Source: Escherichia coli (lineage in GTDB: Bacteria > Pseudomonadota > Gammaproteobacteria > Enterobacterales > Enterobacteriaceae). From it: DNA of 64,000 nt. The number at the start of each line of letters is the position of its first letter. Within the stretch, counting starts at the first letter, position 1. Shown in pieces: positions 3,032-26,131 of the stretch. A program made the translations under genes and the position numbers. The DNA lies in NCBI RefSeq assembly GCF_044324785.1, contig NZ_CP172127.1; one strand, given 5' to 3'. The notes under the pieces are model-generated. The model was given only the letters and a program-made list of their open reading frames with translations. It searched no databases and had not been told where the DNA came from.

Positions 3032-3125
3032 TGCCTTCGCTCAGGGTGCCGGTCTGGCACCCTGACTTGCAACTCCCGCCGAAATCCTGCAAAGTCTGCC
3101 TGCAAGTCTGACAGGGCAACTATTT

Positions 3126-14791: not shown

Positions 14792-14850
14792 AAAAAACCG
14801 GAAATAGTCACTATTTCCGGTTCCGATATCCGCAGCGCAAAGCTGCGGAT
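14792..14850 (-). terminator. pta terminator region (two hairpins)
   Basis: Minus-strand CCGGAAATAG-TGA-CTATTTCCGG followed by TTTTTT (plus 14792-14820), plus a second perfect palindrome ATCCGCAGC-GCAAA-GCTGCGGAT at 14828-14850 just after the pta stop. Confidence 0.7.
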
Positions 14851-17005: not shown

Positions 17006-17079
17006 GGTTTATCCTCTTTCGTTACCGCCGATTTGGCGGGTTACAAAACAGCACCGCCAGCTGAGCTGGCGGTGTGAAA

Positions 17080-19079: not shown

Positions 19080-19652
<573 letters not shown>

Positions 19653-20399: not shown

Positions 20400-22232
20400 G
20401 TGAACGGTGAATTGATTTGGGTTCTTTCATTACTGGCCGTTGCCATCGTCTTGTTTGCGACGGGCAGAGTGCGTATGGATGCGGTCGCTTTGTTTGTTAT
20501 TGTCGCGTTTGCATTAAGCGGAACGCTGACGGTCCCCGAAGTATTTTCCGGCTTTTCCGATCCTAACGTTGTCCTGATTGCCGCCTTGTTTATTATTGGC
20601 GATGGTTTGGTCCGTACCGGTGTTGCCACTGTAATGGGGACATGGCTGGTCAAAGTGGCGGGCAACAGTGAAATCAAAATGTTGGTTTTGTTGATGCTGA
20701 CCGTCGCGGGGCTTGGCGCGTTTATGAGTTCAACCGGCGTTGTCGCTATCTTTATTCCCGTGGTGTTAAGCGTTGCCATGCGTATGCAAACGTCGCCGTC
20801 GCGTCTGATGATGCCGTTAAGTTTTGCCGGGCTGATAAGCGGCATGATGACGCTGGTGGCGACGCCGCCGAACCTGGTAGTCAACAGTGAATTGCTGCGT
20901 GAAGGCTATCACGGCTTCAGTTTCTTTAGCGTAACACCTATTGGCCTGGTCGTGCTGGTGCTGGGTATTTTGTATATGTTAGTGATGCGTTTCATGCTGA
21001 AAGGGGATACCCAGACCCCGCAGCGCGAAGGCTGGACGCGTCGAACCTTTCGCGATCTTATCCGTGAATATCGACTGACCGGGCGTGCGCGTCGTCTGGC
21101 TATTCGCCCCGGTTCGCCAATGATTGGTCAACGGCTGGACGATCTCAAACTACGTGAGCGTTATGGCGCTAACGTCATCGGTGTTGAACGCTGGCGGCGT
21201 TTTCGTCGCGTTATCGTGAATGTTAACGGGGTTTCTGAATTTCGCGCGCGTGACGTTTTGCTTATTGATATGTCTGCGGCTGATGTCGATCTCCGGCAAT
21301 TTTGTAGTGAGCAGTTGCTGGAGCCGATGGTACTACGCGGCGAGTATTTTTCTGACCAGGCACTTGATGTGGGCATGGCAGAGATTTCATTAATTCCTGA
21401 GTCTGAACTTATTGGTAAATCGGTGCGCGAAATTGGTTTTCGTACCCGCTACGGACTGAATGTGGTGGGGCTAAAGCGCAATGGCGTGGCGCTGGAAGGT
21501 TCGCTGGCGGATGAGCCTCTGCTGCTGGGCGATATCATCCTGGTTGTGGGTAACTGGAAACTGATCGGTATGCTGGCAAAACAGGGGCGTGACTTTGTGG
21601 CGCTGAACTTACCAGAAGAAGTGAGTGAAGCATCGCCAGCACACAGTCAGGCACCTCATGCCATTTTTTGCCTGGTGTTGATGGTGGCGTTAATGCTTAC
21701 CGATGAAATCCCTAATCCTGTTGCCGCTATCATCGCCTGCCTGCTGATGGGGAAATTCCGCTGTATCGATGCTGAAAGCGCCTATAAATCCATTCACTGG
21801 CCGAGCATTATTTTGATCGTTGGGATGATGCCGTTTGCTGTGGCATTACAGAAAACGGGAGGTGTCGCGCTGGCGGTGAAAGGGCTGATGGACATTGGCG
21901 GCGGTTACGGGCCACATATGATGCTGGGTTGTTTGTTTGTCTTGTCGGCGGTTATTGGGCTATTTATCTCTAATACCGCAACGGCGGTGTTGATGGCTCC
22001 GATTGCGCTGGCTGCTGCCAAAACGATGGGTGTGTCGCCTTATCCATTTGCGATGGTCGTGGCGATGGCAGCATCCGCCGCCTTTATGACACCGGTTTCT
22101 TCACCGGTTAACACACTGGTTTTAGGCCCGGGAAATTACAGCTTCAGTGACTTTGTGAAGTTGGGGGTACCGTTCACCATTATCGTGATGGCGGTTTGTG
22201 TGGTGATGATCCCGATGCTGTTTCCGTTTTGA
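20400..22232 (+). CDS. yfbS: putative anion transporter YfbS (SLC13/DASS-type permease with TrkA-C domains)
   Basis: 610 aa; hydrophobic N- and C-terminal halves separated by a soluble central region. Confidence 0.88.
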
Positions 22233-22237
22233 CAAGA

Positions 22238-22290
22238 GCCTGATGTCGCATCCGGCGCTTATTGCCTGATGCGACGCAGACTCCGGCTGC
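22238..22290. repeat. REP-type palindromic element between yfbS and yfbR
   Basis: GCCTGATGTCGCATCCGGCGCTTATTGCCTGATGCGACGCAGACTCCGGC contains REP-like GCCTGATGCGACGC units. Confidence 0.65.
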
Positions 22291-22890
22291 TTACAGCGGT
22301 GAATCCTGGCTAATCTCATCGAGCGAAAGATGGAAGCTGGGAACAAAGACTTCCATGAAGTAGTCCATCTCCTGGCTGCGGCGCGCTTCAAGCGTCGCTT
22401 CCAGTCGCGTTTTTGCCAGCAAGAATTCATTATTTCCCGCCGCGAGTTCTTCCAGACATTTCAGATATGCACACAGTGCATCTGCCTGTTTCACCAGCGA
22501 TTTCTCTTCATCGCTATATGCATGCTCGTCAATTAACGGCGCAAAGATATCCCGCAGCTCTTCCGGAACCATATCGACCAGTTTTTGCTGAGCGATTTTT
22601 TCAATCGCCTTGTACTCCTGAGCGATTTGCGAATTGAAGTATTTCACCGGAGTAGGGAGATCGCCGGTGAGCACTTCTGAGGCATCGTGGTACATCGCCA
22701 GTAAAGCGATACGTTCGGCGTTGACATTACCGCCAAATTTCCGATTTTTGATAGCTGCCAGCGCATGGGCGACCATCGCTACCTGCAAACTGTGTTCGGA
22801 CACATTTTCAGTCCGCACGTTGCGCATCAGCGGCCAGCGGTTAATGAGTTTCAGGCGGGAGAGATGGGCAAAAAAATGGCTCTGTTTCAT
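22291..22890 (-). CDS. yfbR: 5'-deoxynucleotidase YfbR (HD domain)
   Basis: 199 aa starting [45 protein letters not shown] (HD motif). Confidence 0.92.
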
Positions 22891-22937
22891 AGTGACCTTA
22901 CGTATGATGACATCATCAGGTCATTGTGGCGGGATAA

Positions 22938-22964
22938 CACTGCCGGATGCAATCTCCGGCAGTG
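22938..22964 (-). other. perfect 10-bp inverted repeat (stem-loop) between alaA stop and yfbR start
   Basis: CACTGCCGGA-TGCAATC-TCCGGCAGTG; no adjacent U-tract, so likely an intercistronic RNA structure or protein-binding palindrome rather than a canonical intrinsic terminator. Confidence 0.55.
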
Positions 22965-22973
22965 AAATTAAGA

Positions 22974-24191
22974 TTACAGCTGATGATAACCAGAAAGGAA
23001 ACGCGCGAACTTGCTCAAAGACAGCTCGATATCATCGACACGCGGTAGCGTGACAATGCGGAAGTGATCCGGCCACGGCCAGTTGAATGCCGTCCCTTGC
23101 ACCAACAGAACTTTTTCCTGCAACAGGAAATCCAGCACCATTTTCTGATCGTCGTGAATATTAAAGCGTTTGGCGTCGATTTTCGGGAACATGTACAGCG
23201 CACCACGAGGTTTCACGCAGGAAACGCCCGGAATATCATTGATCAATTCCCATGCGCGGTTACGCTGCTCATAAAGACGACCGCCAGGGGTAATAAATTC
23301 ACTGATGCTCTGATAACCGCCTAGTGCAGTCTGAATGGCGTGTTGCGCAGGAACGTTAGCACACAGGCGCATTGAGGCCAGCATTTCCAGACCTTCGATG
23401 TAACCTTTGGCGTGTTTTTTCGGCCCGTTCAACACCATCCACCCCTGACGGAAGCCAGCAACGCGGTACGTTTTCGACAGTCCGTTAAAGGTAATGGTCA
23501 GCAGATCAGGTGCCAGCGGCGCAATTGAGTGATGCTCAGCGTCGTCGTAGAGAATTTTGTCATAAATTTCATCGGCGAAGATAATGAGATTATGCTGACG
23601 TGCAATCTCCACTATCTCCATTAACAGCTCTTTGGAATATACCGCGCCGGTTGGGTTATTTGGATTGATAATAACGATCCCACGCGTACGAGGCGTAATT
23701 TTAGCGCGAATATCATCAAGGTCCGGGAACCAGTCAGAGGATTCATCGCAAAGATAATGCACCGCTTTACCGCTGGAGAGCGAAACCGCCGCGGTCCATA
23801 GTGGGTAATCAGGTGCAGGAACCAACATTTCGTCCCCGCTGTTCAGCAATGCCTGCATTGCCTGAACGATAAGCTCCGATACACCATTGCCGATGTAAAT
23901 ATCTTCCACGGTAACATCACGCATGCCACGAGCCTGGTAGTGCTGCATGATGGCTTTACGCGCGGAGTAAAGCCCTTTGGAATCGCAATACCCTTGAGCG
24001 GTAGGCAGGTTGCGAATCACGTCAACGAGGATTTCATCTGGCGCGTCAAAACCGAATGGTGCAGGATTGCCGATGTTCAGTTTCAGTACCTTGTTACCTT
24101 CTTCTTCCAGGCGTTTTGCTTCTTTCAGCACCGGACCACGGATGTCGTAACAGACATTCTCTAATTTGCTGGATTTTTCAATGGGGGACAT
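22974..24191 (-). CDS. alaA: glutamate-pyruvate aminotransferase AlaA
   Basis: 405 aa starting MSPIEKSSKLENVCYDIRGPV; fold-type I PLP aminotransferase. Confidence 0.93.
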   Translation of the reverse strand: MSPIEKSSKLENVCYDIRGPVLKEAKRLEEEGNKVLKLNIGNPAPFGFDAPDEILVDVIRNLPTAQGYCDSKGLYSARKAIMQHYQARGMRDVTVEDIYIGNGVSELIVQAMQALLNSGDEMLVPAPDYPLWTAAVSLSSGKAVHYLCDESSDWFPDLDDIRAKITPRTRGIVIINPNNPTGAVYSKELLMEIVEIARQHNLIIFADEIYDKILYDDAEHHSIAPLAPDLLTITFNGLSKTYRVAGFRQGWMVLNGPKKHAKGYIEGLEMLASMRLCANVPAQHAIQTALGGYQSISEFITPGGRLYEQRNRAWELINDIPGVSCVKPRGALYMFPKIDAKRFNIHDDQKMVLDFLLQEKVLLVQGTAFNWPWPDHFRIVTLPRVDDIELSLSKFARFLSGYHQL

Positions 24192-25107
24192 GAATCTTGA
24201 CCTTTTTTGCTGTTATCGCCACTCCCTGCCGTGGAAGTCAGCTTAGAACAATGTACTCCCCCAGGACGGCGTTTTGAAGGTCTGCAGAATAAGATTTTGC
24301 CAGAGGGGAAGGCTTGATTGTGCTGCTAATAACTTAATAATGGCAAAATAATGAGGTGTATATGCTTAATAATTAATGTTATGTAGTGAATTATTCTGAT
24401 TCTTAATTGTGAGTGTGGTTTTTTTATCTGTAAGATAATTGTTTGAAAATGCCTCGTTTAAGAATTCACTAATGAATCGTGATGATGATATTTCCGCATT
24501 ACGGAGAGTTTAACAGCGTGATGATTTCCGAGGTGTCGTAATGGGTGCAAGGTGTGAAACTATTGTTAAGCGGGATTAATGAATGAGGATGATGCTAATT
24601 AATTATTATTTAATATTCAAAAAGGTTTTGTTGTGCTTATTAATAATAGAAGATTACTTTGCCTAACATAACATAACTTTGCATCAGATAATTCGCAATG
24701 ACCCTTATAAATAAAAGGTTTTTGGGGTAAAATGCTCGCATAAATGACGGATCCCTGCTCTTGATGCCGCCTCACCATTGCTGTTTGTACGTGTTCGCGT
24801 ATGACCAGCGATGCTGCACGAGAGTGGAACAAGGACTCACATTTACATTTATACAAACACGCGCATGTCATAAATACAAAAGAGTGAGTAACTTAATAGA
24901 TATGCGATTCCTGAAGATATATTCTGTGATCTACTTCAGGCATTATAACGGAACAATGTGAGTCGCTTTTTTAGTGCAACTCATATGCATTTTTACTTTC
25001 GTCCGGGTTCCGGATGAAACTGCCAGGGAGGCACATTACAAATGGAATTGCTTGTTTGTGTGTGCACAGCATTAACCAGCTCAGTATGAGCCGCCAGTAA
25101 GTGATAA

Positions 25108-26049
<942 letters not shown>

Positions 26050-26092: not shown

Positions 26093-26131
26093 AGCCGCTG
26101 GGGGTGTTTTAAACCCCAGCGGCTTTTTTTT
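26093..26131 (+). terminator. intrinsic terminator downstream of lrhA
   Basis: AGCCGCTGGGG...CCCCAGCGGCT 11-bp stem followed by a run of eight T. Confidence 0.85.

Follow-up and report, generated by a model that had tools for sequence, protein, structure and literature searches.

The spacer between alaA and yfbR in Escherichia coli is best explained as two interleaved signals, a promoter of yfbR and a hairpin at the 3′ end of alaA, with the −35 hexamer of the promoter lying inside the hairpin. The spacer is 83 nt long and occupies positions 22891–22973 of the window, by which we mean the whole 64,000-nt stretch of the E. coli chromosome that was analyzed (RefSeq assembly GCF_044324785.1, contig NZ_CP172127.1); both genes are on the minus strand. 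The two signals are of ordinary, known kinds. yfbR has its own sigma-70-type promoter, the type being given by the hexamers and their spacing, and the core of this promoter is fixed throughout the Enterobacteriaceae that were compared. By analogy with described 3′ structures, the hairpin is best read as a stem-loop lacking a U-tract that would protect or define the end of the alaA mRNA. The whole composite, in which the promoter is combined with a protective alaA 3′ stem-loop and with Rho-dependent termination further downstream, is in our judgment somewhat better than an even bet.

The inverted repeat and its fold

A repeat search of the window found two arms of 10 nt (22938–22947 and 22955–22964; CACTGCCGGA / TCCGGCAGTG) that are 100% complementary and separated by 7 nt. 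This was in agreement with the original prediction, made from the letters alone, of a perfect 10-bp inverted repeat with a 7-nt loop on the same strand as both genes, alaA, yfbR and the repeat all being on the minus strand (Table 1). Its geometry needed adjustment. The span of 22891–22973 that had been given is that of the whole intergenic region, of which the hairpin itself takes up only 22938–22964, and the hairpin begins 9 nt past the alaA TAA rather than 10 nt after the stop and ends 47 nt before the yfbR ATG rather than about 30 nt. In the coding-strand RNA the hairpin reads CACUGCCGGA-GAUUGCA-UCCGGCAGUG. On its own it folds with an energy of −18.5 kcal/mol into a GC-rich stem-loop in which 7 of the 10 base pairs are G-C, and the folding-energy check that had been proposed gave −32.1 kcal/mol (z = −3.3) for the RNA of the whole spacer. 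The sense-strand tail that follows the stem is UUAUCCCGCC, so the predicted absence of a T-run, and with it of a U-tract, was borne out, and the terminator scan made no call there.

Perfect 10-bp inverted repeats with loops of 3–10 nt number 10 in the window (at 7 loci), compared with a mean of 0.75 in 100 dinucleotide shuffles, which makes them about 13 times commoner than in shuffled sequence; the alaA–yfbR repeat is more than chance. The other perfect inverted repeats of at least 10 bp with short loops lie at 3041–3065, 14796–14822, 17052–17074, 19097–19123, 25361–25387 and 26094–26123, and at least the one at 19097–19123 (AAAAGAAGGC..GCCTTCTTTT) looks like an ordinary bidirectional terminator. 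The MG1655 annotation has no feature for the alaA–yfbR hairpin, and a scan of 22000–24600 with the covariance models of Rfam 15 (E up to 10) left the spacer uncovered. Upstream of alaA, the stretch 24440–24515 (minus strand) scores weakly against the Salmonella sRNA family STnc170 (RF02080; 20.4 bits against a gathering threshold of 80, E = 0.08), which is probably a chance match.

The perfect repeat is one of two alleles. The sense strand of the 3′ arm contains CAGTG in the window and CAGCG in K-12 MG1655, and with the latter the second pair of the stem, counted from its base, becomes an A·C mismatch. Allele-specific searches of complete E. coli genomes recovered the perfect repeat in 2,429 (45%) and the K-12 allele in 2,995 (55%), a balanced biallelic polymorphism. 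In the 5,424 genomes the locus always occurs just once, and its 8-bp GC-rich core is exact in 5,422 of them; one genome under each allele query has an additional mismatch. E. albertii and E. whittamii have T at the polymorphic position, and because other Escherichia species carry this base the perfect-repeat allele looks ancestral. The K-12 allele weakens the two outer pairs and changes the folding energy from −19.5 to −15.6 kcal/mol. Since 55% of the genomes have the weaker allele, selection on the full strength of the stem is weak.

Table 1. Features of the alaA–yfbR region, given in window positions
Feature	Position	Strand	Basis or remark
alaA CDS (alanine transaminase)	22974–24191	−	ORF list; annotation in 5,425 complete E. 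coli genomes and MG1655
alaA TAA stop	22976–22974	−	ORF list
Hairpin	22938–22964	−	Repeat search, folding, covariation
Hairpin 5′ arm, CACUGCCGGA	22955–22964	−	
Hairpin loop, GAUUGCA	22948–22954	−	
Hairpin 3′ arm, UCCGGCAGUG	22938–22947	−	
Polymorphic base of the 3′ arm	22939	−	Sense T here, C in K-12; C allele gives A·C mismatch at pair 2
yfbR −35 hexamer, TTGCAT	22947–22952	−	Invariance; fits the mapped TSS
yfbR promoter spacer, 18 bp	22929–22946	−	First 9 bp (22938–22946) are the rest of the hairpin 3′ arm
yfbR −10 hexamer, CACAAT	22923–22928	−	Invariance; ends 6 nt before the mapped TSS
yfbR TSS (G)	22917	−	Kim et al. 2012, PMC3415461; 27-nt 5′ UTR
yfbR Shine-Dalgarno sequence, AAGG	22896–22899	−	Read off the sequence
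yfbR CDS (5′-deoxynucleotidase / dCMP phosphohydrolase)	22291–22890	−	ORF list; 5,425 genomes and MG1655
C-rich, G-poor stretch, candidate Rho-loading region on read-through RNA	22838–22937	−	30 C and 14 G in 100 nt
Equivalent of the published Rho termination region peak	~22791	−	MG1655 2408961; coordinate converted here

A yfbR promoter with its −35 hexamer in the hairpin

A primary-transcript TSS for yfbR has been reported at NC_000913.2 2406857 (+), with 50 reads and a 27-nt UTR (Kim et al. 2012, PLoS Genet 8:e1002867, PMC3415461, supplementary file 2). The upstream sequence listed there for this TSS, TTTCACTGCCGGAGATTGCATCCGGCAGCGTTATCCCGCCACAATGACCTG, is identical to the corresponding region of the window and contains the whole hairpin (PMC3415461). 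After conversion of the published coordinate to a window position in this analysis, transcription starts 6 nt past the sequence CACAAT, within the 5–9 nt that characterize a primary (5′-triphosphate) start, and an 18-bp spacer, within the 17 ± 1 bp range, separates CACAAT from the upstream TTGCAT. Of the bases of TTGCAT, the first five belong to the hairpin loop, and the 3′ arm begins with the sixth.

The same elements were followed in a comparison set of 81 alaA–yfbR spacers, which comprised the yfbR loci of 80 Enterobacteriaceae species and that of K-12 and was anchored on the shared motif. TTGCA is invariant in all 81 sequences, which represent more than 25 genera, and the T that follows it is present in 79. 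The −10 element has the form C-A-(C/A)-A-A-T, with five positions (C, A, A, A and T) invariant in 81 of 81, and the distance between the two hexamers is 17–18 bp in 80 sequences and 16 bp in the remaining one (L080). Sequence flanking and between the hexamers is much more variable than the hexamers themselves. Judged from this alignment, the fixed TTGCAT ... CACAAT pattern is the signature of a promoter. The −35 hexamer matches the consensus at only three of six positions, which explains why a generic promoter/terminator scan missed the promoter; the same scan did not flag the hairpin either, because it lacks a T-run. In kind, the yfbR promoter does not differ from the internal (intra-operon) sigma-70 promoters described by Kim et al. 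(2012), in which the yfbR TSS is an entry, and its hexamers and spacing are conventional. What is added here is that its −35 hexamer lies inside the 3′ hairpin of the upstream gene and that its core is invariant across the family.

The existence of this promoter bears on the suggestion, made with the original prediction, that the repeat controls the coupling of yfbR to alaA: the two genes are not simply coupled, as yfbR has a promoter of its own with a mapped TSS. yfbR, but not alaA, is among the genes induced by RcsB (2.7-fold; Bury-Moné et al. 2009, PMC2731931) and among the Rcs genes induced by colicin M (PMC3599342), which implies that it is controlled independently. A search with an RcsB box consensus, at most one mismatch being allowed, gave no match near the spacer, so the link between Rcs and yfbR may be indirect.

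Two other readings of the −35 region were considered. TTGCA was inspected by eye as the −12 element of a sigma-54 promoter, and this was rejected, since in E. coli the GC is not preceded by a GG at a distance of 12 nt. The sequence GTTGCATT resembles the CytR half-site aTTGCATc, but it is a single half-site without flanking CRP sites at the correct spacing. The 5′ UTR of yfbR also contains a perfect 13-nt palindrome, ATGATG-T-CATCAT (22904–22916, minus strand; +2 to +14), which is not conserved beyond K-12-like E. coli sequences.

The nature of the yfbR 5′ end also weighs on the idea that the hairpin is an intercistronic processing signal, at which cleavage by RNase III or directed by RNase E separates the alaA and yfbR halves of the message for different decay. 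alaA has been described as bicistronic with yfbR, the hairpin is placed between the two cistrons, and a second conserved stem (see below) adjoins the yfbR ribosome-binding site, all of which would suit such a signal. The downstream 5′ end is a primary, triphosphate end with matching −10 and −35 hexamers and not a cleavage product, and a stem of 10 bp is short for an RNase III substrate. We consider such processing highly improbable.

Conservation of the stem in Enterobacteriaceae

A hairpin with a folding energy of −15 to −31 kcal/mol is located between the alaA stop and the −10 hexamer in 78 of the 81 spacers, with a median z of −3.6 against shuffles. Its arms are unrelated between genera: the arm is CACUGCCGGA in Escherichia, GAGUGCUACCG in Citrobacter, GCCGCCGG in Klebsiella and Raoultella, AUGGCCGCCGG in Kluyvera, GGGGGAGGA / UCUUCCCCC in Kosakonia, Phytobacter and Atlantibacter, and GGGGGGCAU in Cedecea. 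Three arrangements of hairpin and promoter were distinguished. In the first, found in 61 sequences, the hairpin encloses the −35 hexamer. In the second, a different stem, for example CAGGCUAC-UUCG-GUAGCCUG, ends just before the −35 hexamer; this is the case in about 11 sequences, from Salmonella arizonae, Leclercia, Lelliottia, Huaxiibacter and some Enterobacter. In the third, a REP-like hairpin lies further upstream (seven sequences, from the Enterobacter cloacae complex). About 20 of the 81 sequences have a displaced hairpin upstream of the −35 hexamer, formed by a GNRA/UUCG-type or REP-like stem. A new hairpin, of 14 bp, has come with an inserted element in C. amalonaticus, where the former 3′ arm no longer has a partner.

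Repeat elements were seen in several of these spacers. The REP-like hairpin GCCGGGTGGCGCTGCGCCTGCCCGGC, which replaces the Escherichia-type stem in spacers of the Enterobacter cloacae complex and related ones (L019, L023, L024, L030, L033, L035, L046 and L049), is positioned about 45–70 nt upstream of the −35 hexamer, and a C-rich spacer, CTTCCCTCCCCTCCCCG, follows the −35 hexamer at these loci. In L012 and L080 the alaA–yfbR spacer is enlarged by insertion to 207 nt (2294–2500) and 190 nt (2311–2500), respectively. The insertion contains GTGAATCCCCAGGAGCTTACA..AGTAAGTGACTGGGGTGA, its right end, ..TATGACGAGTAT, abuts the −35 hexamer, and it resembles the ERIC/IRU repeat. An 11-nt 'scar' identical to this right end is present in the hairpin loop of species of the C. 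freundii complex (L007, L010 and L011).

Covariation was analyzed in the 30 sequences that could be aligned (alignment A1), using a structure derived from one of them. With this structure 90.5% of the alignment cells form standard pairs, as against 23–52% when the 3′ partner is slid by 1–3 columns, and RNAalifold, unaided, predicts the same helix. The search for compensatory substitutions that had been put forward as a check found covariation of the stem across species: double compensatory changes occur in five of the 10 pairs, and none of 500 shuffles, which ignore phylogeny, attains as high a covariation score. A more robust argument than this score is that entire arms, and entire hairpins, have been replaced. 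Judged from the comparison of species, the stem is selected as a structure and not as a sequence. G·U pairs are frequent (59 in 76 distinct sequences), and the fold of the sense strand is more stable in 44 sequences compared with 25 for the antisense strand, a count uncorrected for phylogeny. This bias is a modest pointer to a function in the alaA-sense RNA and not in DNA or antisense RNA.

These patterns argue against the proposal that the repeat is a regulator-binding palindrome, i.e. an operator at which a dimeric regulator, such as the factor behind the Rcs induction, binds across the yfbR −35 hexamer. Such a reading could draw on the centering of the repeat on the −35 hexamer in 61 of the 81 sequences, on the reported induction of yfbR by RcsB independently of alaA, and on the unusual invariance of the −35 hexamer and its immediate flanks. 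In an operator, however, the half-sites are conserved and the center is free, and the opposite was found: from one genus to another the arms, as the would-be half-sites, have no sequence in common, and the center is invariant because it is the −35 hexamer. In the roughly 20 sequences with a displaced hairpin, about a quarter of the species, the hairpin flanks other DNA, and the frequent G·U pairs would be mismatches in a DNA palindrome. No RcsB-box-like sequence was matched near the spacer in the search described above, and the repeat is perfect in only 45% of complete E. coli genomes and mismatched in K-12. As the arms drift and covary and the hairpin is off the −35 hexamer in a quarter of the species, a regulator-binding palindrome is highly improbable.

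The position of the −35 hexamer in the loop can be accounted for by compaction. In E. coli there are only 21 nt between the alaA stop and the −35 hexamer, which leaves too little room for a hairpin of 27 nt. Spacers with about 10 nt more, such as those of S. arizonae, Leclercia and Lelliottia, have the hairpin wholly upstream of the −35 hexamer. It would therefore be only the shortness of the spacer that makes the hairpin straddle the −35 hexamer, and compaction would be a sufficient explanation: the invariant −35 hexamer may have become the loop, and the freely evolving flanks may have become the arms.

We also considered that the hairpin has no function of its own, being either neutral or what is left of a decayed REP- or ERIC-type repeat, and that such a palindrome flanks the promoter by chance. 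The spacer is a landing site for repeats, with REP-like elements in the Enterobacter cloacae complex and ERIC-like ones in L012 and L080, and the E. coli stem tolerates a mismatch allele at high frequency. Against this, the element is present once per genome in 5,424 genomes, and pairing is kept through compensatory changes while lost hairpins are replaced, which is unexpected under neutrality. A REP consensus had no match in the window, and a search of the window for the element itself, with up to three mismatches allowed, gave one match; identity with a REP was rejected for this single-copy element. The shared 10-mer GCATCCGGCA occurs once elsewhere, within unrelated sequence of coding appearance. 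A lack of function is, in our view, very unlikely.

Possible role of the hairpin at the 3′ end of alaA

REP/BIME elements between cistrons, for example between malE and malF, act as barriers to 3′ exonucleases and make the mRNA of the upstream cistron more stable. The alaA hairpin is likewise intercistronic and a candidate barrier to 3′ exonucleases; unlike these elements it is single-copy, shows no REP consensus and is much shorter. Spacers of the Enterobacter cloacae complex have a genuine REP-like hairpin at this place.

The hairpin can also be compared with the class of protective 3′ stem-loops described by Dar and Sorek (2018, Nucleic Acids Res 46:6797, PMC6061677), of which only 24% are REP elements. 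In transcripts ended by Rho, the steady-state 3′ ends were found to be precise and to lie directly behind stable stem-loops, which lack a U-rich tail, are followed by sequence with more C than G, and block PNPase and RNase II once termination, which is diffuse, has taken place further downstream (PMC6061677). The alaA hairpin agrees with this description in several respects. It is a stable stem-loop just after the stop codon, has neither a U-rich tail nor an upstream A-tract, and is not a REP. There are 30 C and 14 G in the first 100 nt past the stem, a rut-like enrichment, whereas the C/G ratio in the upstream alaA sequence is 0.8–1.0. Apart from these features, a bicyclomycin-sensitive region has been published further downstream, at MG1655 2408961, where the Rho score, computed on 800-nt windows, is 2.86 (p = 2.9e-5; Adams et al. 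2021, PMC7815308, supplementary file 2). The distance from the stem to its peak is 147 nt, which places the peak 100 nt inside yfbR, and the downstream/upstream reads at this position are 29/73 in untreated cells and 126/111 with bicyclomycin (PMC7815308). What sets the alaA hairpin apart from the class is its 'tail', which consists of the yfbR promoter, the yfbR 5′ UTR and the beginning of yfbR itself and is not an untranslated 3′ UTR. For alaA, the tables of Adams et al. (2021) have no entry for a steady-state 3′ end at the stem base. The curated Term-seq lists of that study, which cover three growth conditions, contain no 3′ end at 24087xx–24089xx; this is not decisive, expression being low (about 73 reads per 800 nt).

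On this basis the following course of events can be proposed. Polymerase coming from alaA would transcribe through the hairpin, since there is no U-tract for efficient release. The C-rich, G-poor RNA that follows would let Rho terminate a fraction of the transcripts within about the first 100–150 nt of yfbR, PNPase and RNase II, as 3′-to-5′ exonucleases, would trim these back to the stable stem, and the stem would define and protect the 3′ end of a monocistronic alaA mRNA. The remaining transcripts would read through and form a bicistronic alaA–yfbR RNA. Rho-dependent termination downstream of the hairpin is probable. The Rho score comes from windows of 800 nt with low counts; events at the yfbR end, or an induction of the yfbR promoter by bicyclomycin, could account for it instead. 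The peak is inside the translated yfbR ORF, which is odd unless read-through transcripts are poorly translated. Of the RNA-level roles that had been suggested with the original prediction, a function in mRNA stability or processing is the best-supported, since the stem is kept as a structure and fits the class of Dar and Sorek (2018). The suggestion of a Rho-dependent pause is supported in part, and only indirectly: the C-rich downstream RNA and the bicyclomycin-sensitive region about 147 nt on speak for Rho, and there is no sign of a pause at the hairpin itself.

The main rival is a weak Rho-independent terminator or insulator, in which the hairpin alone releases some of the polymerases coming from alaA, so that fewer of them read on into yfbR and the yfbR promoter is kept from being occluded. 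With its 10 bp and 7-nt loop, the hairpin is similar in size to that of an intrinsic terminator, and it is stable, GC-rich and placed directly after a gene, 9 nt past the alaA stop; in untreated cells the read density falls from 73 to 29 between alaA and yfbR. The second half that defines such a terminator, the U-tract, is missing. In place of about five or more U in 8 nt, the tail in E. coli, UUAUCCCG, has three, and in Escherichia and most other genera it is UUAUCCCG or ACUCUCUG, with at most four U in 8 nt. The hairpin escaped the terminator scan, and the drop in reads is relieved by bicyclomycin and is therefore Rho-dependent. A precise 3′ end at the hairpin is absent from the Term-seq lists of Adams et al. 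(2021), and no precise, Rho-insensitive end in a U-tract was found, low expression limiting this comparison. The resemblance is closer in about 11 species (S. arizonae, Leclercia, Lelliottia and some Enterobacter), in which the hairpin is upstream of the −35 hexamer and is directly followed by AUUUGCAUCUU, a partly U-rich, terminator-like tail; in these, intrinsic termination is more plausible. Overall we regard it as unlikely. A terminator for antisense transcription was also considered and rejected, as the plus-strand tail, AAAUUAAGA, is not U-rich and the end of yfbS is about 700 nt away.

A predicted second stem over the yfbR Shine-Dalgarno sequence

In the predicted fold of the spacer, a second stem is formed at 22893–22923 (minus strand), in which UGACCU (22918–22923), the 6 nt directly upstream of the TSS, pairs with AGGUCA (22893–22898) over the Shine-Dalgarno sequence of yfbR. 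The AAGG of this sequence is kept in nearly all aligned species. The predicted probability that the Shine-Dalgarno region is unpaired is 0.18 in the read-through RNA, 0.63 in the RNA that starts at the TSS, and 0.42 when the extra segment is shuffled. The predicted occlusion is strong in Escherichia, part of Citrobacter, Kluyvera and Pseudocitrobacter (0.00–0.14 versus 0.29–0.87) and absent in Enterobacter, Salmonella and Kosakonia. By eye, the Shine-Dalgarno and anti-Shine-Dalgarno segments differ between clades at apparently complementary positions (CCUUUAC / GUAAGG versus CCUUAA / UUAAGG).

These folds raise the idea that the spacer is a conserved 'transcript-origin switch', in which the hairpin embeds the −35 hexamer and the second stem masks the yfbR Shine-Dalgarno sequence in read-through RNA. 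We consider this model quite unlikely. If it were true, yfbR would be silent, as regards translation, in alaA read-through RNA, which would lie open to Rho; translation would be confined to transcripts from yfbR's own, Rcs-responsive promoter, and alaA and yfbR would look like an operon and yet be deliberately uncoupled. The separate observations on the spacer would then be tied together.

Discussion

The combination of a yfbR promoter with a putative 3′-end structure of alaA opens no new mechanism. Its value is in correcting how the alaA–yfbR pair is read: the two genes are treated as bicistronic, yet yfbR owns a deeply conserved promoter, and the hairpin would mark the end of the alaA message. 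This is of practical use for reasoning about polar effects in alaA knockouts, for operon annotation, and for the engineering of yfbR in deoxycytidine production strains. The locus is also a clean example of how a short spacer can pack a 3′-end structure and a promoter into the same 45 bp. Across the family the structure turns over, through new arms, new hairpins and insertions of repeat elements, and the promoter core remains fixed.
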